Shown piece by piece: positions 857 through 59,020 of a DNA stretch of 64,000 bases (the stretch's first letter is position 1; the number at the start of each line of letters is the position of its first letter). The notes beneath the pieces were generated by a model. The model worked only from the letters and a program-made list of their open reading frames with translations. It searched no databases and was not told the origin of the DNA. Origin of the DNA: a virus; the IMG/VR virus record IMGVR_UViG_3300042389_001478, positions 96,001 through 160,000 of that record; one strand, given 5' to 3'. The translations under genes and the position numbers were made by a program.

Positions 857-858
857 TT

Positions 859-13711: not shown

Positions 13712-14410
13712 TTACTCTTTAATTTTATGTTTATCCTTCATTCCTGTAATAATACTAATGGATTCTGGTGGTACCACAACCTGACTAAATTGTATTTGAT
13801 GGTTTGCTATTGATCTATTAATTATCTCAAACAAAAACATGTTGTCGTAAAAGGAGTTTATAGACAGCTTTAATTTAATAACATCCTTCCTACACAAATA
13901 AAAAGAATCACACCATACATGGTCTCCTATATCATAAAAAATATAGTCTATGACGCCATTTTCTGACGTTACAGATCCCATGTATTTTTTTTGAGAGGTA
14001 TTTCTTTTATTTTTGTGAGATAATACCCAGGACCTATTATCAGGAAAACCCCCATTCTTTGCATTAGAACTCTTTATTAAAGTGCCGCTATTAATAATAA
14101 AACACCCAGAGTATTTTGATATATCTATTTTTGATAATATCAGTTTTAATGCATATCCATGATTCTTATTTTCATACTCAGCATTTAGTATCGTATTTAT
14201 TTTTGCTGGTAGTTTTTTGTCTAACTTATCGGAACCAAAGCCAGAAATAATAAATATGTCTGGATTATCAAATATTCTATATAAGCTATCAATTTGACAC
14301 AAGATCAATTCTTTAGCCGAGGCGTTGGGTTTCAATAATCCTATTGGTCCAAATGATTTCATTCCTTTGGTAATTTCATAAGATAATATAAAACAAGCTA
14401 CCTTATTCAT
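13712..14410 (-). CDS. LicC/GlmU-like nucleotidyltransferase-fold protein (degenerate motifs)
   Basis: FIL...GMKSFGPIGLLK...LILCQIDSL...IFIISGFG...NAEYENKNHGYAL parallels sugar/choline-phosphate NTP transferases. Confidence 0.6.
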   Translation of the reverse strand: MNKVACFILSYEITKGMKSFGPIGLLKPNASAKELILCQIDSLYRIFDNPDIFIISGFGSDKLDKKLPAKINTILNAEYENKNHGYALKLILSKIDISKYSGCFIINSGTLIKSSNAKNGGFPDNRSWVLSHKNKRNTSQKKYMGSVTSENGVIDYIFYDIGDHVWCDSFYLCRKDVIKLKLSINSFYDNMFLFEIINRSIANHQIQFSQVVVPPESISIITGMKDKHKIKE

Positions 14411-14820
14411 TTATTTTTTTCAATTACTGCTACGGAGTGAATGTCTTCGCTATACAACTTGATCAGTTGATAGCCTTGTATCTGAGAAATTATAGCAAGA
14501 AAGTCGGGTTCTGTCCATGATGACTTTATTCCATCAACCATGTCAGCAAATCCCATCCCGTCAACCAAACCATTCTTAATCTTATTGCATACTAGTATTG
14601 GATTCAGAAATCTAATAGTTAGCTGTCCTCCCGGACCGAGCTTTTTTAGCATTTCCATAAAAAGACTATTTCTGGTATTTTTGGATATCTTGTCAGCACA
14701 ATTACATATAATTGTATTAACATATCCGTTGGTTAGTTGCGGCAATTTTTCTAAATCAATATTATTATATCCTTGAACTGCCTCATCGATATTTGTAATT
14801 ATATTTACTTGCGGTATCAT
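14407..14820 (-). CDS. Truncated class I SAM-methyltransferase-like protein
   Basis: ...LFMEMLKKLGPGGQLTI matches the MTase 'LkpGG.l.i' motif; no glycine-rich motif I. Confidence 0.45.
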   Translation of the reverse strand: MIPQVNIITNIDEAVQGYNNIDLEKLPQLTNGYVNTIICNCADKISKNTRNSLFMEMLKKLGPGGQLTIRFLNPILVCNKIKNGLVDGMGFADMVDGIKSSWTEPDFLAIISQIQGYQLIKLYSEDIHSVAVIEKNK

Positions 14821-15737
14821 AGAACAAAAGCCTCCGTATTAGCATTAATCATTAACTTGTTTATATCTCGTGAAAACGTATCGAAATTAAAAACCTTATT
14901 AGCTTCGGAAGAAAAAACTTCTTTTTCTGCATCTGGTATTGTTAATAGATCTTTTATATTCTCCACAAGATCATTAACAGAGTCTACTAATATTAATCCA
15001 GGAAGATTATAGTCGTTTGACATCATCGGAGTTTTTAGAGATACCCCAACACAACCAGAAGAGATGGCACATAATAAATTCGATATATTATGCTCCGCTA
15101 AATCAATACATATTTTATATTCGTTGAATTGATTGTTAATAAATTCTGGACTATTAACCCCAGAAGTCATTACCTCACAAGTATAACCCTTTGACATCAA
15201 GGCTTGGTAAAGCTGGTGGTTGTGGGGTAAATTTTCGAAATTTAATATGAGAACATCTTTTCTTTCTGACGGAGCCTTTGATATGGCAAAATTTTTAGGA
15301 ATCCCGTACTTCATAGTTATAGATCGACCCTGAAGGTTCCAAGAGTCCTTTGATGATTCACTAAAGAATATTTTTGTTTCTCTTGCTAGCCTCTGACCCA
15401 TTAACAAAGCATCCTCTTTTTTAATATATGGCGGCTTATATGAGTGAGTAAAAATTAAAGAATTAATATGCCATTGTTTTAGGTTTTTTGAAGTAAATTC
15501 CACAATATTACTAGTACAATATAGGTTGTAGTTATACAGATCTGTGTGGGTGGGTGGAAGATCTATGACATTTGGAAGATTATAATTGGTCTTGTTTTCT
15601 CCAAATATATAGTAGTTATGCTCAGAAAGACTCATTAGCATCACATCAAATAAATTATTTTGTGGATAGTAAACCACATTATAATTATCTTTAGAAAATT
15701 TTTGCAAAACATTCCCGGTAATAAAACTTAAATACAT
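14817..15737 (-). CDS. GT-B-fold glycosyltransferase-like protein (degenerate)
   Basis: Two Rossmann-like halves; C-terminal YKICIDL...LLCAISSGCVGVS. Confidence 0.5.
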   Translation of the reverse strand: MYLSFITGNVLQKFSKDNYNVVYYPQNNLFDVMLMSLSEHNYYIFGENKTNYNLPNVIDLPPTHTDLYNYNLYCTSNIVEFTSKNLKQWHINSLIFTHSYKPPYIKKEDALLMGQRLARETKIFFSESSKDSWNLQGRSITMKYGIPKNFAISKAPSERKDVLILNFENLPHNHQLYQALMSKGYTCEVMTSGVNSPEFINNQFNEYKICIDLAEHNISNLLCAISSGCVGVSLKTPMMSNDYNLPGLILVDSVNDLVENIKDLLTIPDAEKEVFSSEANKVFNFDTFSRDINKLMINANTEAFVL

Positions 15738-16852
15738 AACTTGCTTCCTATAGAGGAGTAACTAAATCGATCCATGCTCGAAAGACCAAGATCTCTTTTT
15801 TCTTCCAGCTTTTTTCTATTTTCCTTATGCATCTGATAAACCAGCTTCATTTTTTCAATCAAATCATAAATATTAATCCTGTACCAGAATTCATTAGCAT
15901 TATAAATATCGAAATCTTTAGATAAAGTTCTTTGATCAACAATAACTGGTGTTTTAGAACTATTAACAACAAAACCGTTTTCGCCATTGATATAGTCGAT
16001 CATACCAGTATTGTCTGTAACAATAGGAGTCTTTCCTAAACACAATGCTTCTGCTACTGGCCTACAGAATGCTTCTCCGTAAGACGGAGAGACGAGACAA
16101 TCACAAGAATTATGTAGTCCAATTATATCACTATATGATAGTTTTTCGGTGATAATAATTTCTTTTTTATATCTTTGATTAATATTAAGTTTTTGTTTAA
16201 TTTCGTTTAAGTCTTTTTCAATAGTTTTTAATGAATCATTAGGTGACATTCCCGGTATGCTAGTTTTAAGTATCAGAGATACTGGCTGATTAATGTCAAA
16301 AGCTAAATGAAATGCAGTAATTAAATCTTTAATATTTTTACGTTCTACATACTCACCAATAAAATAGAATTTAAAAGTTTTATTTACTATGGGGTTGAAA
16401 TCAAGCTTATGACTAGTATACTTCTTTATATTCTCAATATCTAGTGGTTGAGAAATTGACTTAATTGGCTTTGTTACCCCAGATTTTATTAAACATTTTT
16501 TCTCTTGTTCACTGGGAACCCAAATTTCATCCATCTGGTTGATGTTTGAGACGCATCTAGAGTTAGAAATATTATTAGTTTCTAGGACGAATAATCCGAT
16601 ATTTTTCTTAAATCTGCCATCATAAAATAAACAATGTGGAAGAGTTTTTTGTATAACAACATCGTATTGATCATACACGGAGTTTTCATACCCAAGAAGA
16701 TCACTATCTAGTTCATTAGATGCATTTCCAGCTAAAAAGATCGGTCTTGTAGTTAATTCTTTTACCTGTGTTGCAACAGCTTTGATATAGCTTTGTGTCG
16801 CTAGTCCCCAGCCGTCTTGCTGTCTATAGGGTCCTATAAAAAGTACACTCAT
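15728..16852 (-). CDS. Glycosyltransferase family 4 (GT-B)
   Basis: MDEIWVPS; YFIGEYVERKNI; DCLVSPSYGEAFCRPVAEALCLGKTPIVT (EX7E motif). Confidence 0.85.
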   Translation of the reverse strand: MSVLFIGPYRQQDGWGLATQSYIKAVATQVKELTTRPIFLAGNASNELDSDLLGYENSVYDQYDVVIQKTLPHCLFYDGRFKKNIGLFVLETNNISNSRCVSNINQMDEIWVPSEQEKKCLIKSGVTKPIKSISQPLDIENIKKYTSHKLDFNPIVNKTFKFYFIGEYVERKNIKDLITAFHLAFDINQPVSLILKTSIPGMSPNDSLKTIEKDLNEIKQKLNINQRYKKEIIITEKLSYSDIIGLHNSCDCLVSPSYGEAFCRPVAEALCLGKTPIVTDNTGMIDYINGENGFVVNSSKTPVIVDQRTLSKDFDIYNANEFWYRINIYDLIEKMKLVYQMHKENRKKLEEKRDLGLSSMDRFSYSSIGSKLCI

Positions 16853-18516
16853 TGTAGTTTTTCTTTCATATTTGCATATTCTATGAAGTCTTCGTTTCGT
16901 AATTGTCTTAAGTCGTTCTTTGCGTTTTGAGCAAGGTTGTTGTTTGAAATAATGTTATTCAAAACATCCAAAGCCTTAGAAATATTGTATGGCTCGGTAT
17001 GCATTCCATTAATAGCAAAACCATAGTCTAGATCTTTTATCATGTTTAACAAAATCATAGATGATGCCATTTGATGATTTGGCAAATGCTTAGAAACTAG
17101 TGTGGTTAAAATATCATACGCAGTATTAGCCTGTGGTAATTCTTTGATGGTGTCTAGCGTTAATAGATTTTCATGCCATTTACCTTGTAATCCAGTTAGC
17201 TTAACAGAGTCGAAGTAATCCTCCCACCTGCGAGCTATATCGTCCCAATTATAGTGTTGCTCAGTTAGTTTTCTGGTTTCGAAGCTTTTTTGCTCTCGTA
17301 AAAACTCTGGCATCTTACTAAAATCATACAATACTTCGACTAAATGATCGTTGTCGGGATATACTCTAATAGCTTTGGTTTCTAGTTCTTTAAAGTATTG
17401 ATTAATCTTAATCGGATATCCGTTTAGTTTTCTAACAACATCGCTCATAGCGCTATAGTCCACAGAAGCTATAGGAACACCACATGCTCCGGCTTCCACT
17501 TGTGGCATTCCAAAACCCTCACAAATAGCATATTGAACATAGATATCAAAGGAATTAATAATGGTGGCTAAGGTTTGTGATGTTACTCCTGAGCTAACAT
17601 TCGGCATAGAAAAAGACTTTTGGCCGCATCTTGGGCAAAAACTAACAGGATGTTGATATAAACAAGGAGCAAAATATGCGCAATTTTTACAATTATAGGT
17701 GAACAATACTCTGTTTCCTACCTTGTATTCTTTTAATAATTGCGGTAGATCCCAGCCAGCGTCGGGGTAGCTTGTATGTAGATATAGATAAGTATTCTTG
17801 CCCTTTTCGTCTCCTTCTTTTTCAAATTTCTCTAATAGGCTTTTTAAAGAAGCAAATAATTCTGGCATGAGTTTGCGTTTCTGGTTTCTCATAACAGAAC
17901 CAATAATAAATGATGATTCACTAAGACCTAGGGCCTTTTTAACGAATTGCTTATTCCCGATGATATTAAATGTTGCCAGGTCTACTCCTGGCGAAGTTGT
18001 ACTGATATATTTAATTTTATTATTGCTTTGCTGCAGCAGCGTGTCTCTGCCGAAGTCTGAGTATGTGAATATCGCATCCGCATGAAGAAATGTATCTATC
18101 CATTCTTCTTGTTGTGGTGCCGAATCAACTGTTGGCATTAGAACCCAATGATAGAAAGGTCTTAGAGGAGAAAACTGTTGATAAGAACTCATCCAGTAGT
18201 CTCTAACATCAAACACTATATCTGGTTGAAAATCTAATAGTACTCTCTCGAATCTCCATCTTCCAAACTGATTTTCGGTTGAACTGCTGTATTCTTTATG
18301 TCTAGGGTCTTTATCGTCAACAGCATTCGCGTAATATTTCCATGTTATACCAACATCCTTAGGATCATTCACTTTGCCATATGATGCAAATTCTGCTATC
18401 TCATATTTGCCAGTGGCGTGAAGTCTTTTAAGTATTTCTTTAGAGTAAGTACCAAAGCCAGAACTTAAAAAGCTAGCCTCAGAGCACATGAGAATCTTTA
18501 GTTTTTTTGATGACAT
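16849..18516 (-). CDS. Glycosyltransferase family 4 with inserted Cys4 zinc ribbon
   Basis: SGFG N-terminal loop; RNQKRK; DIYVQYAICEGFGMPQVEAGACGVP; insertion CKNC...CPRC. Confidence 0.85.
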   Translation of the reverse strand: MSSKKLKILMCSEASFLSSGFGTYSKEILKRLHATGKYEIAEFASYGKVNDPKDVGITWKYYANAVDDKDPRHKEYSSSTENQFGRWRFERVLLDFQPDIVFDVRDYWMSSYQQFSPLRPFYHWVLMPTVDSAPQQEEWIDTFLHADAIFTYSDFGRDTLLQQSNNKIKYISTTSPGVDLATFNIIGNKQFVKKALGLSESSFIIGSVMRNQKRKLMPELFASLKSLLEKFEKEGDEKGKNTYLYLHTSYPDAGWDLPQLLKEYKVGNRVLFTYNCKNCAYFAPCLYQHPVSFCPRCGQKSFSMPNVSSGVTSQTLATIINSFDIYVQYAICEGFGMPQVEAGACGVPIASVDYSAMSDVVRKLNGYPIKINQYFKELETKAIRVYPDNDHLVEVLYDFSKMPEFLREQKSFETRKLTEQHYNWDDIARRWEDYFDSVKLTGLQGKWHENLLTLDTIKELPQANTAYDILTTLVSKHLPNHQMASSMILLNMIKDLDYGFAINGMHTEPYNISKALDVLNNIISNNNLAQNAKNDLRQLRNEDFIEYANMKEKLQ

Positions 18517-18523
18517 AATGAAA

Positions 18524-18545
18524 ACGGGGGATATTTCACCCCCAT
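18524..18545 (-). terminator. GC hairpin between ssb and the GT4 gene (weak terminator or SD-bridging hairpin)
   Basis: Minus strand reads AT-GGGGG-TGAAATAT-CCCCC-GT followed by TTTC. Confidence 0.45.
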
Positions 18546-18576
18546 CTCCCGGAAATGATTGGTAGTGATAATAAGA

Positions 18577-18948
18577 TTAAAAGCTGACTACTTCTTCTGC
18601 TGATTCCTTGCTTTTCTTTGAAAGCTTAGTAATCTTAGAAAAATTATTTACACGAACCTTAAGAGAGTTATGCTTAACACCATCCTTCTCCCAAGAGTCG
18701 TTCCTTAATGAGCCTTCGACCAAAACCAAATCACCCTTCTTGAAAGACTGGCCGATGATTTCTGCTCCACTATCCCAGGCTTCACAAGGCACAAAGGTTG
18801 TTACCTTGTCCTTCTCTCCATTAGCCTTAGTGTACTCACGAGATACAGCAACAGTAAAATTGACTACTGAAGTCTGCTTGCCTGCTGTATTAACCACACG
18901 AACTTCTGGATCTCTAGCTAAATTACCGCGTAAAATGTTAATATTCAT
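18577..18948 (-). CDS. ssb: Single-stranded DNA-binding protein
   Basis: MNINILRGNLARDPEVR...VVNFTVAV...CEAWD...GDLVLVEGSLRNDSWEKDG. Start moved to 18948, behind SD AAGGAG. Confidence 0.95.
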   Translation of the reverse strand: MNINILRGNLARDPEVRVVNTAGKQTSVVNFTVAVSREYTKANGEKDKVTTFVPCEAWDSGAEIIGQSFKKGDLVLVEGSLRNDSWEKDGVKHNSLKVRVNNFSKITKLSKKSKESAEEVVSF

Positions 18949-18985
18949 TAACTTCTCCTTGAAAAAAAGACCAATGTACTGAACT

Positions 18986-19013
18986 ATTATAGCCATGACG
19001 CGACGAGCGTCAA
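18986..19013 (-). promoter_or_regulatory. Sigma70-type promoter upstream of ssb
   Basis: Minus strand TTGACG-16 nt-TATAAT; the -35 box overlaps the TGA stop of the dnaE-C gene. Confidence 0.65.
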
Positions 19014-20638
19014 GTTTTTGGAATATAAGTTTTTTCTACGATAAACGAATCGCCGTTCTTTGATCTGTTGCCTTTGACAATAATAACATTGCCTTGAAAT
19101 AAAATATTTCGATAAGCTTTGTAAGCTTCGGGAAAAAAAATAACAGAATCTAAAACACCAGTACCGTCACTCAGTGTAACAAACGCCATCTCTAATCCAG
19201 GATTTTTACCAGTCTTGGTTTTAGTAACACTTAGGTTATCAATCTCGCCACATAAGATCAGATTGTCACTCATTAGAGATGTCTTAAAATCTTTACATGT
19301 TGTATTTGTCATAGTGATATCATACATATCGACCTTAGAACAAGTAATGCTGCAGCCGAGTATCTCGTCCTCGGTGTCAGAAATCCATTCTGGATTGTCT
19401 TCCAAAGAATGCGGAGGCTTATTAAAGTTATTAATTAGTCCCAATATTATAGATTTTCTATTCTTATTAGACTTTCCGTTGTGATAAAGATCATATAATC
19501 CATCTCCAAGGGATTTATATTTATGTATATTGCCTAGAATAAATTCTGCTTCTTTTTTGGTTAGTTCAGAAGCTAGATTAAGTTCAAACAGCATACATGT
19601 CCTACTTTTATTTAAATAGGATAGCGCCCCACTTTGTATTAATGCTTTTGCGGCAATGGAGTTGATATTCATTAAAACCTGCAGCAGCATTTCTGTCCAG
19701 TTCATTGTATCAAAATCTAAATGCTTAGTATTTTTTATATTACTAAGTTTATCAAATACCGACTGTCCAAATCCTTTAATATCTGTTAGGCCAAAGTATA
19801 TCTTATCATTCTTTAAAATAAATAGTTTATTAAGGTTTCTAATGTCTGGTATTGATACTGAAACATCCATTTCGCTAGCATTTTGAACCAGTTCTTTAAT
19901 TTCTGCTTTTGGGTCAATTTTATCCTTAGCAAATCTTAAATATGAAGCGAAAAAGATCTTAGGGAAATGGGCTTTGGTAAATGCTGACAAATATGCGTTT
20001 ATAGCATAAGATACAGAGTGGGACTTATTGAATGAATACCTCTGAGATTTTTCGATCCATCCGAAAATTTCCTCTGCTTGATCAGCTGATACTGTGCCAA
20101 TTTTTTCGCACCCTTGTATAAACTTAACTTTAATTTTTGCCATTTCTTCAGGCTTCTTTTTCCCAATAGCCTTTCTTAACATGTCTGCTTCTTGCAAATC
20201 AAAGCCAGCAACAGTTTTAGCTATTTCCATTGCCTGTTCTTGATAAATCATCTCTCCATATGTTTCCTTTAAAATAGGTTCCAAAGACGGATGATAATAA
20301 TCTACAGACTCCTGCGCATTCTTCTTGTCTATAAAATGATTAGAAACAGATTTGCCATCTCTAAAAGCCTCAAGACAACCAGGTCTCATAATACTAATTA
20401 AGGCAGAGAGCTGTTCTATATTCTCTGGCTTTAATTTTTTAGCCATAGACTTGCCGAGCCTAGACTCTAGCTGAAAACATCCCTTAGTATTGCCATCAGA
20501 AAGCAATTGCCAAGTTTTTGAACAATCTAAATGAATATGTTCTATGGTTGGATCAAAATTGATATGAATATGCTCATCCGTAGAGTCTGGCATAATATCA
20601 AAAGAGCATCCACAAGAATATTGAAATGTTTTAGGCAT
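19010..20638 (-). CDS. dnaE: DNA polymerase III alpha (family C), C-terminal half: fingers, HhH, OB
   Basis: GCFQLES, LSALISIMRPG, IYQEQAM, ADMLRKAIGKK, YSFNKSHSVSYA, FGLTDIKGFG; OB-fold MAFVTLSDGTG. Confidence 0.93.
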   Translation of the reverse strand: MPKTFQYSCGCSFDIMPDSTDEHIHINFDPTIEHIHLDCSKTWQLLSDGNTKGCFQLESRLGKSMAKKLKPENIEQLSALISIMRPGCLEAFRDGKSVSNHFIDKKNAQESVDYYHPSLEPILKETYGEMIYQEQAMEIAKTVAGFDLQEADMLRKAIGKKKPEEMAKIKVKFIQGCEKIGTVSADQAEEIFGWIEKSQRYSFNKSHSVSYAINAYLSAFTKAHFPKIFFASYLRFAKDKIDPKAEIKELVQNASEMDVSVSIPDIRNLNKLFILKNDKIYFGLTDIKGFGQSVFDKLSNIKNTKHLDFDTMNWTEMLLQVLMNINSIAAKALIQSGALSYLNKSRTCMLFELNLASELTKKEAEFILGNIHKYKSLGDGLYDLYHNGKSNKNRKSIILGLINNFNKPPHSLEDNPEWISDTEDEILGCSITCSKVDMYDITMTNTTCKDFKTSLMSDNLILCGEIDNLSVTKTKTGKNPGLEMAFVTLSDGTGVLDSVIFFPEAYKAYRNILFQGNVIIVKGNRSKNGDSFIVEKTYIPKT

Positions 20639-21329
20639 GGCTAGCGGTGAAAGAGTCTTTGAATTTTATTTTATTGCTTAGATTACGATGGAGCTTAAGG
20701 AATCGAATTAGGATATCGGCGCAGTCCTTAACGTCTTTTAAGGCATCGTGTGCTCCAACCTTAGAGATTCCAAAATAGTCTCTTAATGAATCTAGGGTAT
20801 AACTCTTTAAGTCTCCATTATTTTCAAACCAATAAAAAATTAAATTCATGATATCAACAACATCTCTAGGATAAAAGATATCGGTCTTTGATTCTTTATT
20901 TACGTTACCATATTTATTGCTTAGTCTATCAACTATTGGTAGATCAAAACGATAAATATTATAGCCAGCAGCTATTGGAGCACTAAATTGACTTTTTTTA
21001 GATGATCTGCTGTGATACATTTCTAAATAGTTGGTAAACATCTTCCAAGATTGCTCTTGTGAAGGATACTGTTTCCAGTCTTTTAGAATGTCATCCTTAG
21101 AACATCCCTTAACTTTAGCATGAAAGTCCAGAATATCTGTTGTATATTCATAATTTTCGTCTTTTGCCAGAACATCTGGCTTAAAGAAAATATTAAATTC
21201 AGACTTTGGTACTATTTCGAGTTTAATAGGATCAATAATAACCGAGGCTATCTGAACCGGACTGCAAATCCTGGGATCAGATCCGTCTGTTTCAAAATCA
21301 AAAACACAGATTTTATTATAGTTAATCAT
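20631..21329 (-). CDS. DEDDh 3'-5' exonuclease (epsilon/DnaQ-like proofreader)
   Basis: VFDFETDG (ExoI), AGYNIYRFD (ExoII), HDALKDV (ExoIII). Confidence 0.9.
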   Translation of the reverse strand: MINYNKICVFDFETDGSDPRICSPVQIASVIIDPIKLEIVPKSEFNIFFKPDVLAKDENYEYTTDILDFHAKVKGCSKDDILKDWKQYPSQEQSWKMFTNYLEMYHSRSSKKSQFSAPIAAGYNIYRFDLPIVDRLSNKYGNVNKESKTDIFYPRDVVDIMNLIFYWFENNGDLKSYTLDSLRDYFGISKVGAHDALKDVKDCADILIRFLKLHRNLSNKIKFKDSFTASHA

Positions 21330-21333
21330 TAGT

Positions 21334-21531
21334 TTAGTCGTTTACTTCTACTTCTATTAGTGGTAAAACTTGGATACGTTGAGCTTGATCCGACAGCAAT
21401 GCTGCATTAATAGCCTTACAGCAACTAACTCTTTCTTCTGTCAGCTTTATATATTCATTAACCGCGCCCTGGTCATTTTTTAGTTTAAATGTCTGACCGA
21501 TAGCAACTTCCATAAACTTTTTAATCGCCAT
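21334..21531 (-). CDS. Hypothetical 65-aa protein
   Basis: Fills the gap between dnaE-N and the exonuclease exactly, on the coding strand. Confidence 0.55.
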   Translation of the reverse strand: MAIKKFMEVAIGQTFKLKNDQGAVNEYIKLTEERVSCCKAINAALLSDQAQRIQVLPLIEVEVND

Positions 21532-21533
21532 AT

Positions 21534-43701: not shown

Positions 43702-45258
43702 TTACTCTCTAAAATATAGTTCAGAGGTTTTATCTAATGATTTCTTATTATTTATTGGCAAAAACTGCTTATAGTTCAATGTTCTTTTTGGAAAACCTTC
43801 TTGAGTTGATATGGCAAAAACCATTCCAAAAGCCCGTTGTCTTTCTGTACACTCAAACGGAGTGCAGCTGGTGTCGTCTCCATCTGGTACACAGCTTTTA
43901 TAAATATCGGGAAAGTAGCATGGTGGAGGACAGAATCTTTCTCTACACCCCTTAAAGCTTGGAGTTTGATTAAAAGTTATCATTGATCGTAAATGGCTTT
44001 CGGTTACTAAAAAACTTCCTTTTGGTATTGGTCCCCAAAATGGGTCGCCGCCGCTGTTCCATTCTCCCCAGCTATTTGCTAGTAAATAAACACATTCTGG
44101 ATATTGTATTTTAGTATCATCATAACCTATTATAGAATAGGAATGATACCAAATTCTATCAGGATAACTTAGCCCAGTAGAATCACGATAGTCCGGAAAG
44201 CCTACATTTGTCATTAATACTATCCCATATCCATTATAGATCAAGTCTTTAATAATAGCAATATTTTTATTCATAATGTCGTAGTTGATCATCGAAATAG
44301 TACGACAGCGTTCTATTTTTGCGATTGGATTTGATTGTGGTAAAATAGTGTCGTTTGTATAGTCATATCCATTAATACTTTGAAAATATTGTAAGAATAG
44401 ATCATCTCTACATCCATAAAAATTAGGACCACTATTATCTATAAAGTTACCATACCCACCATAGCTTTTTCTCTTTAAGATTCCTATATGCTTAAGTTTT
44501 TTACCCACAAATCCGCTTGATTGATTGCCGCTAAAATAGTTATCATCCGATGGTATCCAAAATGAAAACTCGTCTCTGTTTGTGATTATCCCCCCGCAAC
44601 ATTCATTGATGCGTTTTTCACAACTTCCACCGTCGTTACAACATGGATCGTTTTGATCTGGCGGGTCAGAAGTACACTCTCCGCAACTTCTGCATTTTGG
44701 ACGCTCTTCACCCGGTAATTTGACGCATCCGTGAGCTGTTCCAGCAGCACCAAAAGGTGGATTAGGTAAGCATGATTTCATGATGCCGCAGCCGGTAGCT
44801 CTAGATTTGGCGGTGGTTTCTGGCACCAAGTCCGGACCCAGAACCATTAAACAATCTACCAATGAGTTTCCTCCGAAATGTTCTAGGGGCTCTGGTGCTG
44901 TTCTGCTTTCCCAAGCCAAATAGTTTTTAGTTATTTCAATATCACAAGCTCTTGTAATATCAACAGCATTTCTAGTGGCGTGAGAAGATCCACTACTAGT
45001 TGCTGGCTGAATTTCCCTAAAAGCCTCAGCGTCTATTCTGCATAAAAATTTATATGGTATCCCAATACGCTGGCTTCCAGTTCCTTTGATAGTAGAAATA
45101 TGAGGAGCAGAGTCAATACAAGGATACTTAAGATGCTCTAGAAACTTAATGAGCCTTGGGAGATTATAGGGAGTTCCAAATCCAATTTCTCCATACTCGA
45201 AATCACTAGTGCATGGTCCTAGCGTATAGGATAGATAAAGTTCTCTGGGAGTAAGCAT
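43702..45258 (-). CDS. Papain-like (C1-type) peptidase paralogue lacking the catalytic Cys
   Basis: QPATSSGSSHATRNA aligns with QTTGDCVSHGTRNA of the 48673-49596 protein. HSYSIIGYDD and ANSWGEWNSGG are retained. Confidence 0.75.
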   Translation of the reverse strand: MLTPRELYLSYTLGPCTSDFEYGEIGFGTPYNLPRLIKFLEHLKYPCIDSAPHISTIKGTGSQRIGIPYKFLCRIDAEAFREIQPATSSGSSHATRNAVDITRACDIEITKNYLAWESRTAPEPLEHFGGNSLVDCLMVLGPDLVPETTAKSRATGCGIMKSCLPNPPFGAAGTAHGCVKLPGEERPKCRSCGECTSDPPDQNDPCCNDGGSCEKRINECCGGIITNRDEFSFWIPSDDNYFSGNQSSGFVGKKLKHIGILKRKSYGGYGNFIDNSGPNFYGCRDDLFLQYFQSINGYDYTNDTILPQSNPIAKIERCRTISMINYDIMNKNIAIIKDLIYNGYGIVLMTNVGFPDYRDSTGLSYPDRIWYHSYSIIGYDDTKIQYPECVYLLANSWGEWNSGGDPFWGPIPKGSFLVTESHLRSMITFNQTPSFKGCRERFCPPPCYFPDIYKSCVPDGDDTSCTPFECTERQRAFGMVFAISTQEGFPKRTLNYKQFLPINNKKSLDKTSELYFRE

Positions 45259-48672: not shown

Positions 48673-49596
48673 TTAGAGATAGTCTTCAAAGCCATAACTT
48701 GGTAGTTTTTGAAGGGGGAATCCATCAAAACCACTAAAGGCATATGATCCATTTTGACTCAACATGCCCTGAGCAATATCGGCATTTATCAAGAAAGATC
48801 CATCTGGAATTGGGCCCCATTCTGGATGACCTCCATCGTTCCATTTGCCCCAACTATTTTGAACTAGAAATGCTGGTTCGCCATTAGTATCATCACAAGC
48901 TATCCAAGCCATGCAATGACCCCAAGATCCTGACTGTTTAGCAAATCCTTTTTTGTCTCTGGTATTGCTAAAGCCATAATTAGAACAGACTGCTAAACCA
49001 TATCCATTACCTAGAGCGTCTCTAGCTTCTTCTACTGTTCTAATCAATGAAGCAGTCCTAATTTGGTGGTCGTTGGCAAGGTCTAATACTTTATCGGGGA
49101 GTCCTCTGCCGCCCCAGCCTGCTCCTAAATTGCCATTGTATTTACTAAAGTCTACAAAACCATAATTTTTTCTTACCACAAGACCGCCAACCTTGCTTAC
49201 AAATTCAGCCGCTCTTGCACAACTCATACCTTGTCCGCTGAATCCTCTGTATCCATAAATAGCCTCTGTTGCGCCCTTTGCTATCCAATCCTCTCTCTCA
49301 TTTCCTATATCTATTTCTACCGCTCGTGAAACATCGCAAGCATTTCGTGTTCCATGGCTCACACAATCCCCGGTGGTTTGTCTTTCATTATAAGGATTTT
49401 TATCAAATTTTAACACACTTTTATATGGTGTTGATAGTTTACCCTTACCACTGCCACTAATTTTTTTACTAGCATCACCAAACAATGGATACTTGGAGGT
49501 TTCCATTAAATTATCGTAAACATGCTGTTCCCACAAGCATCCACTAAATCCCTTGCGATAATTATCATATAGTTCTTTAGGAGAGAGTCTTGGCAT
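48673..49596 (-). CDS. Papain-like (C1-type) cysteine peptidase
   Basis: Q...GDCVSH (Cys), GHCMAWIACDD (His), QNSWG (Asn). Confidence 0.8.
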   Translation of the reverse strand: MPRLSPKELYDNYRKGFSGCLWEQHVYDNLMETSKYPLFGDASKKISGSGKGKLSTPYKSVLKFDKNPYNERQTTGDCVSHGTRNACDVSRAVEIDIGNEREDWIAKGATEAIYGYRGFSGQGMSCARAAEFVSKVGGLVVRKNYGFVDFSKYNGNLGAGWGGRGLPDKVLDLANDHQIRTASLIRTVEEARDALGNGYGLAVCSNYGFSNTRDKKGFAKQSGSWGHCMAWIACDDTNGEPAFLVQNSWGKWNDGGHPEWGPIPDGSFLINADIAQGMLSQNGSYAFSGFDGFPLQKLPSYGFEDYL

Positions 49597-49601: not shown

Positions 49602-50285
49602 TTACCCTTTTGATAAAATTTTATTGCCTTTTTTAATATTGTCTATTGCCCACAATGGCTGTAGATTGGTATAATGAAAACAAATTTGTTGTTGGGTCTG
49701 ATCAGTTAAATCAAAAGTGGAACAAGGAATAATATGATCTACATGCCATCCATCCTGACCATAATTATCCCAAGTCATGCCTTCTAAAAATTTACTTTCT
49801 ATATATGTTCTTAGAAACTGAGCCGAACAACCTAACAAATCCAGTGTTTTATCTGTTTTGTGCGTTTTTAATATGCCACTAATTCGTGTTCTTTGGTTTG
49901 TGATTAATCTATACGAGTGATCTATTTTCCTTCTAAATTTTTCTCGATTTCTTCTATAAGCATTAATTTTATCTTTATTATTAATCTTGTATTTTTTAGC
50001 TGTTACTAAAATTTTATCTTTATTTTTTATTTTATATAGATTGCTTTTTTCTCTCATCTTTTCAAGATTATTCTGATAATAAATTTTAGCTTTTGCCGCT
50101 CTTGTTATTGAGTTTTGTTTTCTCTGCTTGGATATACGGTCTTTATTCTTCTCTCTATATATTTTATTAGCATCTTTTACACAGCTTTTACAATCCCATC
50201 GTTTACCATCTAAGGCTTTAGTAGCCGTTGAAAAATCTTCTAATGGTTTTGATTCTTTACATTTAGAACAAACTTTTAACAACAC
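49602..50285 (-). CDS. HNH homing endonuclease
   Basis: N-terminal CSKC...CKSC; basic repeats; WHVDHIIPC...FHYTNLQPLW...N. Confidence 0.85.
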   Translation of the reverse strand: MLLKVCSKCKESKPLEDFSTATKALDGKRWDCKSCVKDANKIYREKNKDRISKQRKQNSITRAAKAKIYYQNNLEKMREKSNLYKIKNKDKILVTAKKYKINNKDKINAYRRNREKFRRKIDHSYRLITNQRTRISGILKTHKTDKTLDLLGCSAQFLRTYIESKFLEGMTWDNYGQDGWHVDHIIPCSTFDLTDQTQQQICFHYTNLQPLWAIDNIKKGNKILSKG

Positions 50286-51953: not shown

Positions 51954-52649
51954 CTACAAGATCTTATCTGATTTAGCAATATTCAAATCCCACCACAACG
52001 GCTGCATATTAGTATAGTGAAAACAAATTTTTTGCTGTTCTGGATCAGAAAGGTCAAAACTGGCGCATGGAATTATGTGGTCAATATGCCATCCTTTGGG
52101 ACCATAGACTTCCCAGTTCAGTCTAGGGTCTTTATAGAATTGTGATTCCAGATGTTGTTTAAACTCTTCAATAGAACAACCCAATAATTCTGTTGTGGCT
52201 TGAGACTTATAGTACCCTTTAATACTAGCTACTATTCTTTTTTGTAAGATACTTCTTAACCTATAAGAAAGATCAGTATAATATTTTTTATGCTGCCACT
52301 TATTTGCGCTTTGTCTAATTTTTTCTTTATTATTAATCCTATAATCTTTCATATACCCAGGCTTATTTAGTCTTTGTTCTTTCTGATAAGCTAGCTTAGT
52401 TTCTCGTTGTCTTGAATATCTTTGTTTATCTATTATTTTATTGTGTTCTTTATTTTGAATTTTATAGTCTTTGGATTTTTTTATTCTATCTTCTCTATTG
52501 CTAATATATCTATTGTGCTGATTAATTTTATCACAATACTTACACTGAGCTAGTTTGCCGTATTTACCAGTTTTACTATTTGGAAAATCGTTCAGTTGTT
52601 TTGTAATATTGCATTGATTACATGTTTTTGTTTGAGTCATAATAAACAC
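51954..52649 (-). CDS. HNH homing endonuclease (paralogue of 49602-50285)
   Basis: CNQC...CKYC; WHIDHIIPC...FHYTNMQPLW. Confidence 0.85.
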   Translation of the reverse strand: MFIMTQTKTCNQCNITKQLNDFPNSKTGKYGKLAQCKYCDKINQHNRYISNREDRIKKSKDYKIQNKEHNKIIDKQRYSRQRETKLAYQKEQRLNKPGYMKDYRINNKEKIRQSANKWQHKKYYTDLSYRLRSILQKRIVASIKGYYKSQATTELLGCSIEEFKQHLESQFYKDPRLNWEVYGPKGWHIDHIIPCASFDLSDPEQQKICFHYTNMQPLWWDLNIAKSDKIL

Positions 52650-53523: not shown

Positions 53524-53547
53524 GGTGCTTAAAATTTAAATTAGAAA

Positions 53548-54090
53548 TCAAGATTCAGATGGATAATTCTGACCGAATGGTACAGGCTGGCCGAGCTTGT
53601 ATACGATTTGACCTGGGACGCCTCTTGTTGGTGTGGCGGCATTATCTGTTGCTAATGAGTCAACAGCTACTACCGGATATCCAGCTTCGAATTGGCCAGT
53701 AGATCTGTTATACTTGTTAGCCCTAATTGCTGTGGTAAATCTGCGTGTTCTGAGAACTCTTAGAGGATGAATACCCTCAACTAATGATGGAACATTAGCA
53801 CCGCTTTGTAAAGCATTGTTGCTAACACCAGCTAGTGTAGTGGTATATCTCATTCCCACGCCATCCCTGTCATTATAGGCAAATGCGCCAGCAGTTACAG
53901 CCTTATTTGCCCAACTGTTATCAATAACTGTTGAAGCAAATACTTCTGTATTGTATCTTGAGACAGATACGGTTGACAATGTGCTTGAAGAACCTGTTCT
54001 AGCAGCAGAACCGTGATTATTTTGGGCGCCACTAGCTTTTCTATTTGGAGGAATAGTATATGATGAACCGTTAACTTTTGCTGTTGCCAT
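53548..54090 (-). CDS. Ala/Ser/Thr/Gly-rich putative virion structural protein
   Basis: Start MATAKV at 54090 after SD GGAG; composition typical of small capsid/tail proteins. Confidence 0.5.
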   Translation of the reverse strand: MATAKVNGSSYTIPPNRKASGAQNNHGSAARTGSSSTLSTVSVSRYNTEVFASTVIDNSWANKAVTAGAFAYNDRDGVGMRYTTTLAGVSNNALQSGANVPSLVEGIHPLRVLRTRRFTTAIRANKYNRSTGQFEAGYPVVAVDSLATDNAATPTRGVPGQIVYKLGQPVPFGQNYPSES

Positions 54091-54137
54091 GGTAATCTCC
54101 ATTGTGTTAGAAAACTATTATTAGTATACCCTAAAAC

Positions 54138-54791
54138 TTAAGAAGACTGATTATTTTTAGACAATAATTTTAAAGCATTAATAGAATTAACCTTCATACC
54201 ATACAAATTGCCCTTATTTATATTATTAATTTGGCCAATATTCCAGATATTGCCATTGCAAATGATATTAATTGGGACTTTTTTGTTTATCAGTGCTGAC
54301 GCCAAAATATTATCGCTAATATCGTCTAATTGATATCCAGTAGAAGGATATATTGTATGTACTCCAAGGTCTAATAAAATTTGAGATACTTTATAGAGCA
54401 ATTCATATGTAAACACCCTATATTCTAAAGTATATCTTAATTCTACGGCATATTTATTACAAATCTCCAGATTGCTTTTAATATCATCTCTAAATTTGTC
54501 ATATTTTCTATTGCAAAAATAGTATGGCTGGGCAACTATATTAATAATTTGTGCTCCAGATTTGATGGCTGACTCTATCGCCTGATTTCGGTTTTTGGTA
54601 TCCAAAACCCCAAGAGGATAATCAATAACAGTTGAGACTAAAATATCTTCTGGCACAAGATTTTTGGTAATCTTGATATGAGGAGGTAGTAAGCAAATAG
54701 TTTTAGGCTTAAATACTATTGCTTTTTCTATGCTCTGTTTTATTTCTTGATCAGATAATGAGACGTCATATGTTGAAAATTCTATGATCAT
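54138..54791 (-). CDS. Deoxyribose-phosphate aldolase (DeoC)-fold protein lacking catalytic lysines
   Basis: STVIDYPLG (cf. CTVIGFPLG); YPSTGY (cf. KTSTGF); ICNGNI (cf. KASGGI). Confidence 0.75.
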   Translation of the reverse strand: MIIEFSTYDVSLSDQEIKQSIEKAIVFKPKTICLLPPHIKITKNLVPEDILVSTVIDYPLGVLDTKNRNQAIESAIKSGAQIINIVAQPYYFCNRKYDKFRDDIKSNLEICNKYAVELRYTLEYRVFTYELLYKVSQILLDLGVHTIYPSTGYQLDDISDNILASALINKKVPINIICNGNIWNIGQINNINKGNLYGMKVNSINALKLLSKNNQSS

Positions 54792-55459
54792 TTTTTAAAC
54801 TTATAGGATTTAAGAGAATCTATAGTTGAGTATTTCTTATCTCCTAATACACCATCTGCAAAGCCATATTCAACAGCCTCTTGAGCTTTTAGTATCCAAT
54901 CACATTTATTAGCCAGTTGTGAAGTAATGTGTTTTTTTGCCATCATTCTTTTCCAATTTTTTAATTTAGCCATCTCGCTCTGCATACATCTGTCCGTAAA
55001 AATATCAATCATCTTATCACACTCTTGTTCATTCCATTGTATGCCAGCAGCAGCAGCCTTGCTATGTTCGGCATCTACACTGAATGATCCATAATGAATC
55101 ATAACGTTCGTATTTGGCATTAGAATTCTTAGTGGGGCAGCTTGCAGTATTACACTGCTTGAGGATTCTACTTTGGCATAGGCTAAGATAATAATTTTTG
55201 CCTTAGAAAATCTTATGGTATCATAAATACCCAAGCAGTCCTGCCAGTCTCCCCCAGGAAGATGCATGTGAACTAATATGGATTCATCTGAGAGCGTATT
55301 TAGATATCTAATATTTTTTTCAAATACTACAGCCGACCTATAATCAACACCACCTTCTTCGTCTCCGTCTAAACATGAATGCAGAAAGACTTCTCTTGTT
55401 TTTGGATTGATATTAAAGTTATGAATGTCATTTAGTTCTGTGTCGTTATTGACTACCAT
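54788..55459 (-). CDS. clpP: ClpP-family serine protease
   Basis: HLPGG; VESSSS (Ser); VMIHYGS (His); CDWILKAQEAVEYGFAD (Asp). Confidence 0.88.
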   Translation of the reverse strand: MVVNNDTELNDIHNFNINPKTREVFLHSCLDGDEEGGVDYRSAVVFEKNIRYLNTLSDESILVHMHLPGGDWQDCLGIYDTIRFSKAKIIILAYAKVESSSSVILQAAPLRILMPNTNVMIHYGSFSVDAEHSKAAAAGIQWNEQECDKMIDIFTDRCMQSEMAKLKNWKRMMAKKHITSQLANKCDWILKAQEAVEYGFADGVLGDKKYSTIDSLKSYKFKK

Positions 55460-55880
55460 GTAAGTACCTATAGGCTTGATCGTTAATTTCTTTCATTACT
55501 CTAGCATCATCAAAAACCTTTCCTATAGCTATTCTAAATCTATATCTAGTAAATACATCAAGGGTTTCAACCCCATCGGTATTCTCTATAATATCAATTA
55601 TATTCTCATTGATATTGAAGTTAGAATGACCCACCCAAAAATTAAAGATCTTGCTAGAAGCAGTATTCTCTGTGTATGGAATCAAGCCCATAGGAGTAGC
55701 TATCGCTCTCATTCTTTGGGGATGAGACATATGATCATCTATTCCTTCTGCTTCTTCTGTATTGTCGTCTACATCTTCCTGGGTAATATTAGAATCTATG
55801 GAAATCTCATCGTCTGCTCCGAAAGGGTCAAACCATTTTTGCCAAACTATTAAATTATCTTCTCCATAGACATTTCTCAT
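55446..55880 (-). CDS. Hypothetical protein
   Basis: Probable ATG start at 55880 with SD AGGA; WQKWFDPFG...TRYRFRIAIGKVF. Confidence 0.6.
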   Translation of the reverse strand: MRNVYGEDNLIVWQKWFDPFGADDEISIDSNITQEDVDDNTEEAEGIDDHMSHPQRMRAIATPMGLIPYTENTASSKIFNFWVGHSNFNINENIIDIIENTDGVETLDVFTRYRFRIAIGKVFDDARVMKEINDQAYRYLHGSQ

Positions 55881-55905
55881 TTTGATCCTATTATTAGTTG
55901 ACAAA

Positions 55906-57287: not shown

Positions 57288-57351
57288 GGTTTATCCTTTA
57301 AAAGTCCTTAAATAAAAATAAAATTCCTTAATTAACTATCAGCAGATCAAA

Positions 57352-57798
57352 CTATTTATCTTTTGGCTCTGTTAATTTTTTCCACATTTCTGGGTCTGGC
57401 CTATCCTCGTCGCCTCTTTTGGCGGGCTTATATTTCTTGCCCTCTCTTTCTTTTTTCTTTCTGATATTGTCCCACAGTCCAGGCTTGTCTGAGGCAAAAG
57501 TATCATCGTCATCGGAAGGTACATACTTCACAAAATCGTGAATAGTTCGCATGTAATCCTCTGTGATGGCAATTTTACCCTGAAGCCAGCTCTCTGTCAA
57601 GTTTTCTCTAATTTTTGGGTCGTCAACGACATCTAGTATAGACTGAGCATGAGAAACTATAGCTTTTAAAGAACCAATATTCATCTCATAAAAATCTTGT
57701 TTATAATCTTCTAGATTATCGTTAGATGAATGTGTTTTGTTGTTAGAAATTGATACAAAGGACTGTATTGAGTCTAAAATCTGATAGAATCTGTTCAT
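57352..57798 (-). CDS. Hypothetical protein with basic C-terminal motif
   Basis: KPGLWDNIRKKKEREGKKYKPAKRG. Confidence 0.6.
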   Translation of the reverse strand: MNRFYQILDSIQSFVSISNNKTHSSNDNLEDYKQDFYEMNIGSLKAIVSHAQSILDVVDDPKIRENLTESWLQGKIAITEDYMRTIHDFVKYVPSDDDDTFASDKPGLWDNIRKKKEREGKKYKPAKRGDEDRPDPEMWKKLTEPKDK

Positions 57799-58439
57799 AA
57801 TATTCTCTCTTTTAGTTTATTAAATAAGAATTTTGTTAATTTTATTGAAGCTAGGTTATCTGAGGGATAATGTACGCCTTGTAGTATTCTCGCTTTTCCT
57901 GTGTCTTTGACCAATGAATCTAATTTTTGTTTGTTTACCGTTGGGTAGTAATATTCAATAATATGAGCAACCAAACTGCTATACACCGTATGTCCAGATG
58001 GATAAGCAGCTGTATGATGAGTATCTGTAACAATAACATCAATATTTAAATCATAATATTTGGCCAATTGTGAAGGTCTTGGTCTATTCCATAGGGATTT
58101 TACGTTTAGTACAATAGGTTTAATTATATTATAGAATTCTAATATTTTGGGTTGGGGATATTCCAAACCATATTGATTAAGCAATTCGATAAAAACACTA
58201 TCAGTATCTTGGTCTATAATTTCTACTAGCTTAGTCTCTTCAAGAGTTCTATTCAGTGTTGATCGTGATACTAACTGTAATTCCAAAAAAGTTTCCTTGC
58301 TCGTATTAGGAGGGGGAGCTTCTAAAATTTTTTTCCAATCGAAATCTACTATATCAGGAACCGGTTGTTCTATATACTCAGTACCATAACCCAGTAATTC
58401 AATTTCTTTGTATTTAATTAATGAATTAAGATTTATCAT
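57795..58439 (-). CDS. Soluble PAP2-superfamily phosphatase
   Basis: K-x6-RP (KSLWNRPRP), YPSGH and R-x5-H-x3-D (RILQGVHYPSD) all present. Confidence 0.88.
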   Translation of the reverse strand: MINLNSLIKYKEIELLGYGTEYIEQPVPDIVDFDWKKILEAPPPNTSKETFLELQLVSRSTLNRTLEETKLVEIIDQDTDSVFIELLNQYGLEYPQPKILEFYNIIKPIVLNVKSLWNRPRPSQLAKYYDLNIDVIVTDTHHTAAYPSGHTVYSSLVAHIIEYYYPTVNKQKLDSLVKDTGKARILQGVHYPSDNLASIKLTKFLFNKLKERIL

Positions 58440-59020
58440 ACTTGTATGCTAAGAAAGTTATCGAGCCCCATTTGTTCGATCATCTTTAGAAAACCTTCAT
58501 ATAATACTATTCCATCTTCACTACCTTGTAGTAATGGTATCATAATATTAGCTGTCATCTCATCGCCCACTGCTCTGGCCGCAGTTATAGTTGCTCTTTC
58601 TGCTACAGCCGCTTCTTGTACTGATGCTAGGTTATATTTGATCATTGCCAACATATCATGTCTAGCCCAGGTTGGAGGAGTAACCATTAACGGCTGATAG
58701 TCTGCATTAAAAAATTCTAATCTAGTTATATTAATAATAGAGTGCTTGTGTTCTTCTTCTGCATCCTCTTTAATAACCGAGGCAAGCTTTTTGTATCCCC
58801 ATCTTTCAAGATGTACTGCTTGTGCAGATAAGGCTGTTGTCTGCTGCCAGTGAATATTTAAAGATTTTTTAAGGAGTTCAACAACTTTGTCATTGGAGTT
58901 ATTTTCAACTTCTTCGTCAGAGATTACCTCTGGATGCACAGGTTCTTCTGCCACAATAATGTCCTTTGCTTCAATAATTTCAGATTGTTCAGTCAGTAGT
59001 TCTTGAATAGTTTTAGTCAT
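58436..59020 (-). CDS. Bacterioferritin-fold protein with degenerate ferroxidase centre
   Basis: WGYKKL...EEEHKH...RLEFF...MGLDNFL collinear with Bfr; acidic N-terminal extension. Confidence 0.8.
   Translation of the reverse strand: MTKTIQELLTEQSEIIEAKDIIVAEEPVHPEVISDEEVENNSNDKVVELLKKSLNIHWQQTTALSAQAVHLERWGYKKLASVIKEDAEEEHKHSIINITRLEFFNADYQPLMVTPPTWARHDMLAMIKYNLASVQEAAVAERATITAARAVGDEMTANIMIPLLQGSEDGIVLYEGFLKMIEQMGLDNFLSIQV

Follow-up and report, generated by a model that had tools for sequence, protein, structure and literature searches.

Conserved phage genes with enzyme folds and apparently lost catalytic residues: candidate pseudoenzymes in a clade of large freshwater phages

Why would a phage maintain intact genes for enzymes whose active sites appear to be gone? 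This question is raised by a 64,000-nucleotide stretch of DNA (hereafter, the window), which comprises bases 96001-160000 of the 192,497-bp virus record IMGVR_UViG_3300042389_001478, derived from an uncultured phage. A previous sequence-only reading of the window had singled out four open reading frames (ORFs) that resemble DeoC, bacterioferritin, papain, and LicC as full-length enzyme folds with erased active sites, and had taken them as the strategy of one phage for repurposing enzyme folds as ligand sensors, decoys, dominant-negative subunits, or structural parts. All four (beginning at 54138, 58436, 43702, and 13712, respectively; Table 1) were located on the minus strand where that reading had placed them, are intact, and are related to those folds. 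We estimate, with a probability of about 0.75, that the window contains five or more distinct functional genes which each derive from an enzyme fold and appear to have lost the residues that define the catalysis of the parent, and which would be pseudoenzymes or enzymes of changed chemistry, not pseudogenes. The parent folds would be the TIM barrel of deoxyribose-phosphate aldolase (DERA), the helix bundle of bacterioferritin (Bfr), a papain-like C1 peptidase, a LicC/MobA-like nucleotidyltransferase, and a GT-B glycosyltransferase of the GT4 type. We use the term pseudoenzyme in an operational sense, i.e., for a gene in which the catalytic motif of the parent is absent and on which purifying selection acts, and both features were found here. 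The five genes are old core genes of a clade of ~100-240-kb freshwater phages and are under purifying selection. They have no physical or evident functional link to one another and do not form one coordinated system, and as unlinked ancient core genes of a whole clade they weaken the interpretation as a strategy of one phage. These degenerate ORFs represent 5 of the ~15 enzyme-fold ORFs that were checked at the level of residues, whereas ~28 enzyme-fold ORFs were recognized in the window.

The DeoC-like ORF gave no match in a Pfam scan. Queried against the PDB with phmmer it retrieved 20-odd DERAs, the best of which was 1mzh (E 9e-9), and a profile built from ten orthologues retrieved DERAs at E 2e-10. 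The NCBIfam model TIGR00126 (deoC) matched at E 6.5e-16, with 58 bits versus a cut-off of 117. The homology to DERAs (1mzh, 5dbt, and 1jcl from E. coli) is collinear over ~145 residues in a protein of the same length, and the landmarks DYPLG and PSTG are present. The catalytic positions, however, differ. In both alignments Y148 falls on the Schiff-base Lys of KTSTG (E. coli K167, strand 6), while N84 aligns to the proton-relay Asp102 (EIDMV) and R119 to Lys137, the Lys of KVIIE. By eye, beyond the end of the hidden Markov model (HMM) alignment, I177 (NIICNGN) falls on Lys201 (VKASGG). The family to which this protein belongs comprises 715 clusters at E <= 1e-3, many of which carry the JGI name "deoxyribose-phosphate aldolase". 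Among 121 members the Schiff-base column holds Tyr (113), Leu (6), or Met (2) and never Lys, and Lys is likewise absent from this column (Tyr/Leu/Phe/Thr) in 25 members that reach down to 31% identity. The column of Asp102 varies among Asn, Ser, Asp, Glu, and Ala, and that of Lys201 between Ile and Val. The protein is thus a full-length DERA homologue with its catalytic residues replaced, as had been claimed. Seven residues (D57, R68, R119, E123, R125, N181, and W183) are shared by all 121 members, several of them persist in the 25-member divergent set, and most map to the ends of barrel strands by alignment to DERA. A migrated Schiff-base Lys was sought among the conserved lysines of the family, none of which lies on a barrel strand by alignment: K66 is present in only 110 of the 121 members, and K96, K99, and K134 align to helices. 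The conserved polar residues point to a remodelled ligand site, with alternative catalysis being possible, and the barrel probably binds an anionic ligand through a remodelled pocket rich in Arg and Asp.

The ferritin-like ORF is matched by PF00210 (E 3.7e-10) and by ~40 bacterioferritins of the PDB, and the profile of 11 orthologues aligns without a shift to residues 6-154 of E. coli Bfr (1bcf, E 8e-11). The score with TIGR00754 was 27.9 bits versus a cut-off of 125.6. The Bfr helices and the C-terminal helix (helix E) are present, and the protein carries an acidic N-terminal extension of ~45 aa that is variable. At the positions of the six ferroxidase ligands E18, E51, H54, E94, E127, and H130, the phage protein has H57, E90, H93, V134, S167, and G170, respectively, all of which are invariant in 121 members of the family. 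The claim of a full-length Bfr homologue with a degenerate centre is therefore upheld, with four of the six ligands replaced family-wide. The position of the haem ligand Met52 is occupied by H91, a column in which 113 of the 121 members have His, 7 Gln, and 1 Arg; variants of E. coli Bfr with the replacement M52H are haem-free. A set of Dps-type ligands (H57, H70, D86, and E90) was considered by eye and rejected, since two of the spacings deviate by one residue and the database matches are all to Bfr. The ORF is intact in 10 of 10 related loci and is the sole ferritin in the genome, its ratio of nonsynonymous to synonymous substitution rates (dN/dS) is 0.086 (at dS 0.68) and 0.22 (at dS 0.16), and the JGI name of the family is "bacterioferritin (cytochrome b1)". 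The protein may be a cage subunit without a ferroxidase centre (FOC), perhaps with a single-metal site formed by His/Glu/His.

The nearest known counterpart is found in the heteropolymeric bacterioferritin of Acinetobacter baumannii, which includes FOC-less subunits with H18 and H54 but without the other ligands and without ferroxidase activity; vertebrate L chains also lack the centre, and natural heteropolymeric cages mix FOC-bearing and FOC-less subunits (PMC11303784). The phage protein shares with the A. baumannii FOC-less subunit the Bfr fold, the His at position 18, H54, and an incomplete di-iron site. On the other hand, it retains E51, has Val, Ser, and Gly at positions 94, 127, and 130, and carries the acidic extension. 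The A. baumannii subunit keeps the haem Met52 where the phage protein has His (or Gln), and the phage genome encodes no partner ferritin. Ferritin-like genes are already on record for phages: "Gratiaviridae" encode Dps and Mn-catalase (PMC8008677), and phage G a ferritin-like protein (PMC12484599). The start of the neighbouring PAP2 gene overlaps the stop of the ferritin-like gene by 4 nt. Of 11 related loci only 2 contain PAP2, which is therefore accessory and no partner of the ferritin.

Searches with the single LicC-like sequence against Pfam and the PDB gave no match, and PF00483 had no match in the whole genome. The ESM Atlas model of the protein (predicted TM score, pTM, 0.88) lies nearest to clusters of the NTP_transf_3, IspD, DUF6564, and LicC types, with TM values of ~0.8-0.85. 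The family comprises 82 clusters, all of ~230 aa and with no Pfam domains, and a DUF6564 match was obtained for 1 of 27 members. When the family profile was queried against the PDB, LicC (1jyk), a protein of the same size, was the sole significant match (E 2.5e-6). This likeness extends to MobA-like nucleoside triphosphate (NTP) transferases and DUF6564. The phage family differs from LicC in that the N-terminal GxG(T/S)R...PK signature is replaced by a loop that reads YEITKGMKSxGP(I/K)GLL, in which G16, M17, K18, S19, and G21 are invariant in 53 members and K15 is found in 51 of them. At the position of the canonical PK lysine, 24 of the 53 members have Ile, 22 Lys, and 4 Arg; Ile is found in the clade of the window and Lys or Arg in deeper branches. 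The Asp positions are also variable. In a mapping from sequence only, the family consensus has Ile and Ser opposite the two metal-binding Asp of LicC, and the column read as the first metal Asp is occupied by Gly in the window and by Asp in certain members. D160 of the motif YDIG is kept in the window; across the family, 32 members have Asp at this position, 17 Asn, and 3 Gly. The canonical catalytic positions drift while the new loop is frozen, which points to a conserved non-canonical function at this site. The ORF is full-length in all but one of 68 loci, and we concur with the previous description of an intact nucleotidyltransferase-fold homologue from which the GxGTR...PK signature is absent. 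In one relative (L157; IMGVR_UViG_3300045125_000172, 1-9165) the LicC-like, GT15728-like, and GT16849-like genes are present only as fragments (66, 135, and 166 aa), which could reflect frameshifts, another genetic code, or real decay in that relative.

The fifth gene lies in the same cluster of glycosyltransferases. A phmmer search of this GT-B-like protein and of the adjacent 137-aa ORF against the PDB gave no match, and hhalign comparison of the former with the neighbouring GT4 families yielded only weak matches (3.8% and below), so that its fold was assigned by AlphaFold2 (AF2) and Foldseek. The AF2 model built with 28 orthologues is confident (pLDDT, the predicted local distance difference test, 91.9; pTM 0.90), and Foldseek matched it to BshA, PglA, and MshA (E 3e-8, probability 1.0, TM 0.55-0.67). 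The protein shares the two-Rossmann GT-B fold with such GT4 enzymes (BshA 6d9t, PglA 8dqd, and MshA 3c48), but it is ~60 aa shorter, has lost EX7E, and has no Pfam match. The region of EX7E reads AEHNISNLLCA. Among 28 members the second position of the motif is Cys in 19; the others have Ile, Ala, Leu, Thr, or Val there, and none has Glu, while the first is Glu in 10, Asp in 6, Asn in 5, and Ser in 3. By contrast, EX7E is present in three neighbouring GT4 genes. The sequence-only reading had described both a GT-B-like and a methyltransferase-like ORF as degenerate. The first description agrees with the fold and the loss of EX7E, but the second lacks support from tools: the 137-aa ORF resembles by eye the LKPGG half of a class I methyltransferase and has no match in Pfam, PHROG, the PDB, or NCBIfam. 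In addition, hhalign detected a 38-column segment that the 261-aa ORF of the cluster shares with the GT-B-like protein (91%).

Two papain-like paralogues are encoded in the window, a long one (518 aa) and a short one, which are related by blastp over two segments (2.5e-22 and 5.8e-11). Pfam and PDB sequence searches of the long ORF gave no significant match, PF00112 had no match in the whole genome, the profile of the family retrieved nothing meaningful from the PDB, and Pfam matched none of 10 distant family members. The relationship to papain was instead suggested by other evidence. An ESM Atlas search of the long ORF leads to Peptidase_C1 clusters, and the AF2 model of the short paralogue, although of low confidence (pLDDT 50, from 16 sequences), has C1 cathepsins as all of its top 50 Foldseek matches (E from 3.6e-4). 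A papain relationship of the phage family is thus probable. MAFFT alignment identified the motifs ERQ-TxGDCVSH, W(G/A)H, and QNSWGKWN in the short group and EIQ, YH(S/T)Y, and ANSWG in the long group, in which the nucleophile position is Ser in 4 of 7 members and Ala in 3 of 7; an HMM alignment places Gly there in the long ORF of the window. The long group also carries a Cys-rich insert of ~190 aa and a second one (~45 aa) near the C-terminus. An exhaustive profile search retrieved 1075 representatives of the family, of which the best 150 were aligned with the two paralogues of the window. The full Gln/Cys/His/Asn set is present in 98 of these 152, and the nucleophile column is Cys in 114, Gly in 14, Ser in 7, Thr in 1, and Ala in 1 of 137 representatives. 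This shift among Ser, Ala, and Gly in close relatives argues against a working Ser nucleophile. Of the earlier description of the long ORF, the absence of the nucleophile Cys and the clear paralogy hold, whereas the fold is probable and not proven; the short paralogue keeps its Gln/Cys/His/Asn set in the alignment, as had been noted.

Papain-family homologues without the Cys include Plasmodium SERA5 and sponge silicatein. With these the long protein shares the paralogy to a Cys-bearing C1-like protein and a replaced nucleophile with retained His and Asn. It differs in that the replacement is not fixed, in its two Cys-rich inserts, and in that the Pfam C1 model misses the whole phage family. 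A pseudo-cysteine protease of an insect has also been described (PMC8583781). The dN/dS of the long paralogue is ~0.11-0.25, with dS saturated in every pair, and that of the short paralogue 0.016-0.13. The Cys-less paralogue would bind the substrate of its paralogue without cutting it, or would regulate that paralogue. Directly upstream of it, and conserved alongside, is a gene (45260-45511, minus strand; PF04226, E 2e-7) for an 83-aa transglycosylase-associated membrane protein of the GlsB/YeaQ type.

Are these genes decaying? They are full-length in dozens of related contigs and their dN/dS values at unsaturated distances (0.05-0.22) resemble those of neighbouring bona fide enzymes, which bears out the assertion that they are not decaying pseudogenes. 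Across related phage genomes, the comparison that the sequence-only reading had proposed, dN/dS is far below 1 and frequent disruption was not seen. Specifically, each of 80 diverse loci has an intact DeoC-like ORF, and comparison of this gene between the window and a related locus (L001) gave a dN of 0.030, a dS of 0.64, and a dN/dS of 0.046. At dS < 1, values were 0.048-0.094 for the LicC-like and 0.09-0.11 for the GT-B-like gene, as compared to 0.031 for ClpP (in the same pair as the DeoC-like gene), 0.050 for GT15728, and 0.164 for PAP2 as controls. For all genes of the glycosyltransferase cluster dN/dS was 0.02-0.18. Motif inspection also confirmed the contrast drawn previously with ClpP, PAP2, dUTPase, and the short papain, which keep their active sites, and motifs are likewise kept in the IMPDH-like gene (Cys loop), the dNMP kinase (P-loop), and the dCMP deaminase (HAE). 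In several related contigs (for example, those behind the loci L001/L014, L002/L098, and L007/L108) the DeoC-like, ferritin-like, and LicC-like genes co-occur, and the long papain paralogue is present in most of these as well. Since several related contigs share these genes, the pattern of degenerate enzymes is an old property of the core genome of the clade.

Table 1. Coordinates of the degenerate enzyme-fold genes, their neighbours, and the contrast cases in the window
Position	Strand	Feature	Basis
12455..13709	-	Two cluster ORFs, 155 and 261 aa	Conserved synteny; dN/dS 0.03-0.18
13712..14410	-	LicC/MobA-like nucleotidyltransferase fold, GxGTR...PK signature replaced	Family profile, ESM Atlas
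14407..14820	-	137-aa ORF, called methyltransferase-like earlier	Conserved in 37 loci; dN/dS 0.02-0.15
14817..15737	-	GT4-like GT-B fold, EX7E absent (second Glu to Cys)	AF2, Foldseek
15728..18516	-	Two GT4 glycosyltransferases, EX7E intact at 260-268 and 333-341; contrast cases	PF00534
33254..33679	-	dUTPase, all five motifs; contrast case	PF00692, E 2.8e-35
43702..45258	-	Long papain-like paralogue, nucleophile Cys absent, Gln/His/Asn kept, two Cys-rich inserts	Paralogy, motifs
48673..49596	-	Short papain-like paralogue (307 aa), Gln/Cys/His/Asn set; the "second papain" of the earlier reading	Motifs, Foldseek
53548..54102	-	184-aa ORF rich in Ser/Thr/Gly/Ala, downstream module member	In 77/80 loci; no family match
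54138..54791	-	DeoC/DERA-fold TIM barrel without Schiff-base Lys (Y148; N84, R119, and I177 at other catalytic positions)	PDB/profile homology
54788..55459	-	ClpP-like serine peptidase, Ser/His/Asp kept	PF00574, E 2.5e-16; triad by eye
55446..55904	-	152-aa ORF, upstream module member	In 78/80 loci; no Pfam, PHROG, or NCBIfam match
57795..58439	-	PAP2 phosphatase, three motifs intact; contrast case	PF01569; KX6RP, PSGH, RX5HX3D
58436..59020	-	Bacterioferritin-like, half of di-iron ferroxidase centre and haem Met replaced	PF00210; Bfr profile match

The pairing of the dead aldolase with ClpP is the most interesting piece of the set. The stop of the ClpP-like gene and the start of the DeoC-like gene overlap by 4 nt. 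In the neighbourhoods of 80 diverse viral loci, which were fetched with the DeoC-like family alignment, a ClpP-like ORF lies directly upstream of the DeoC-like gene in 79, the remaining locus ending at the contig edge, and the gap between the two is mostly -26 to +7 nt. Together with the flanking ORFs of 152 and 184 aa they make up a four-gene module. The matches of the ClpP-like protein are split between cellular ClpP and ClpP-related head-maturation proteases, with those in PHROG and NCBIfam all below cut-off. It is the sole ClpP of the genome, in which we found no prohead protease of the S77 or S78 type and no Clp-type ATPase above threshold. A prediction of the complex of ClpP with the DeoC-like protein scored 0.00 versus a mark of 0.32, a result that weighs neither for nor against binding. 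The lysine-less barrel would work with the translationally coupled ClpP-like peptidase as its partner, its regulator, or its substrate. This coupling of the barrel gene also distinguishes the phage protein from the DERAs. A literature search for DERA with ClpP in phages gave no relevant publication.

What the ClpP-like peptidase does, and whether the degenerate proteins act within host complexes, can be read in several ways. If the peptidase were a head-maturation protease, the DeoC-like barrel and its two neighbours might be head-assembly or packaged proteins that it processes. The best PHROG matches of the peptidase are indeed head-maturation proteases, NCBIfam Clp_rel_HeadMat scored 46.6 bits, the module is conserved, and the genome offers no S77/S78 prohead protease, second ClpP, or Clp ATPase. 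We nevertheless find this rather doubtful, as models of cellular ClpP score equally well, the barrel has no N-terminal propeptide, and the module sits among early or metabolic genes (sigma factor, PAP2, and IMPDH-like). A more specific proposal, which we hold to be very unlikely as it stands, is that the barrel is a dedicated ClpP partner, either a non-ATPase adaptor or gate, or a sensor of a small molecule similar to deoxyribose-phosphate that times proteolysis during infection. As for the ferritin-like protein, and perhaps the DeoC-like one, they could be dominant-negative or modifying subunits that join host oligomers and alter iron storage or deoxyribose metabolism. Retention of the Bfr helices and the C-terminal helix, the lack of a second ferritin in the phage with which to pair, and the natural cages of mixed subunits (PMC11303784) are consistent with such co-assembly. 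Still, it seems unlikely to us, given that position 52 is His and not the haem-binding Met of the Acinetobacter FOC-less subunit, that the invariant His/Glu/His set hints at an independent function, and that the DeoC-like gene is tied to ClpP and not to genes of nucleoside catabolism.

More general doubts concern the pseudoenzyme interpretation as such, and the following points weigh against it. The losses were read from alignments, and compensating or migrated residues may exist in the three-dimensional structures. In the DeoC-like and LicC-like families conservation is highest at the former active sites, which fits alternative catalysis as well as ligand binding. In the ferritin-like protein the Fe2 half of the di-iron site appears to be gone while an invariant His/Glu/His remains, for which "remodelled" would be a better word than "erased". 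The papain fold is suggested by a low-confidence model, a language-model search, and motifs, with no Pfam or PDB match, and many of the pairwise comparisons, among them all those of the long papain paralogue, have a saturated dS. The earlier statement that active sites had been erased is accordingly right about the missing key residues and overstated in two or three cases, where the sites are remodelled and conserved. A real but minority possibility is that some of the proteins remain catalytic by means of migrated or different residues (neo-enzymes), the LicC-like, DeoC-like, and GT-B-like ones being the most plausible candidates. The frozen YEITKGMKSxGP loop sits exactly at the site of the NTP-binding signature and supplies two invariant lysines, the invariant residues of the DeoC-like family lie mostly at barrel strand ends, and many GT-B families function without EX7E. 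Examples of migrated catalytic residues are also given in a review of pseudoenzymes (PMC10211241). On the other hand, the chemistry of class I aldolases needs a Lys and the DeoC-like family has no invariant one on a barrel strand, the Mg-binding Asp positions of the LicC-like family vary mosaically, and close relatives of the long papain differ at the nucleophile position (Ser, Ala, or Gly), which argues against a Ser nucleophile. It is scarcely credible, finally, that the missing residues are alignment artefacts of very divergent sequences or that the ORFs are decaying pseudogenes. Pfam does fail on three of the four main ORFs, but single-sequence and profile alignments agree on the same columns for the ferritin-like and DeoC-like proteins, the replacements are family-wide, and the orthologues are all intact with dN/dS far below 1.

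The GC (guanine plus cytosine) content of the window is ~34%, nearly all genes beyond its first 9.6 kb are on the minus strand, and a megablast search of 20 kb against GenBank phages gave no match. Pfam searches identified a replication block (split DNA Pol III alpha, an RNase T-type exonuclease, single-stranded DNA-binding protein, and a PD-(D/E)XK nuclease), nucleotide metabolism (dNMP kinase, dUTPase, dCMP deaminase, class II ribonucleotide reductase, and an IMPDH/GMP-reductase-like gene), many glycosyltransferases, a sigma-70 region 4 protein, PAP2, and ClpP. The DNA Pol III alpha is divided into an ORF with PHP and NTPase regions (21534-23408, minus strand) and another with finger, HhH, and OB regions (19010-20638, minus strand), between which lies the ORF of the RNase T-type exonuclease (20631-21329). 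The glycosyltransferase cluster follows the order replication genes, two GT4 genes, 14817, 14407, LicC-like, 12924, 12455, "HNH-like" 11686, and 10948, and this order is syntenic in ~40-68 viral contigs. Within it, the LicC-like and GT-B-like proteins would be non-canonical members of a glycosylation cluster attached to replication genes. The cluster (10948-25032, minus strand), with the nearby dNMP kinase, dCMP deaminase, dUTPase, and class II ribonucleotide reductase, could be a module for the glycosylation of DNA bases (hypermodification). Glycosylation capacity is also found outside the cluster, where a 599-aa fusion of a GT2 domain with a C-terminal methyltransferase (36780-38579, minus strand) is followed by a second GT2 at 38583-39212. 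The ORF at 11686-12474 (minus strand) matches PHROG families of HNH/homing endonucleases. It occupies the same place in nearly all 68 related loci (52-90% identity) and therefore behaves as a core gene, not as a mobile endonuclease. Two paralogous endonuclease VII/HNH-like ORFs (phrog_1035; 49602-50285 and 51954-52649, minus strand) were absent from related loci at the thresholds used and are probably mobile insertions.

Pseudoenzymes are a known phenomenon that has been little studied in phages. Their modes of action, which include scaffolding, regulatory, competitive, and occasionally cryptic catalytic roles, have been reviewed, and phage or viral examples have 0 occurrences in that review (PMC10211241). 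Likewise, our literature search for pseudoenzymes in bacteriophages gave nothing relevant, and no description of a ClpP-coupled lysine-less aldolase barrel was found in the literature searched. The phage proteins resemble known pseudoenzymes in that catalytic motifs are absent yet the proteins are conserved, several of them with an active paralogue or neighbour; they differ in that several unrelated folds occur within the core genome of one phage. The names of active enzymes given by JGI to the DeoC-like and ferritin-like families are likely a systematic mis-annotation in viromes. Since the defining residues are missing throughout both families, metabolic interpretations of viromes in which the two are counted as auxiliary metabolic genes are likely wrong. 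At the same time, these families offer clean natural test cases, namely a ferroxidase-less ferritin, a Cys-less protease beside a Cys-bearing paralogue, and a ClpP-coupled aldolase barrel. The last of these provides a concrete hypothesis open to bench experiments: if it is true, ClpP with a dead aldolase would be a new type of phage proteolytic module, present in well over a hundred large freshwater phages.

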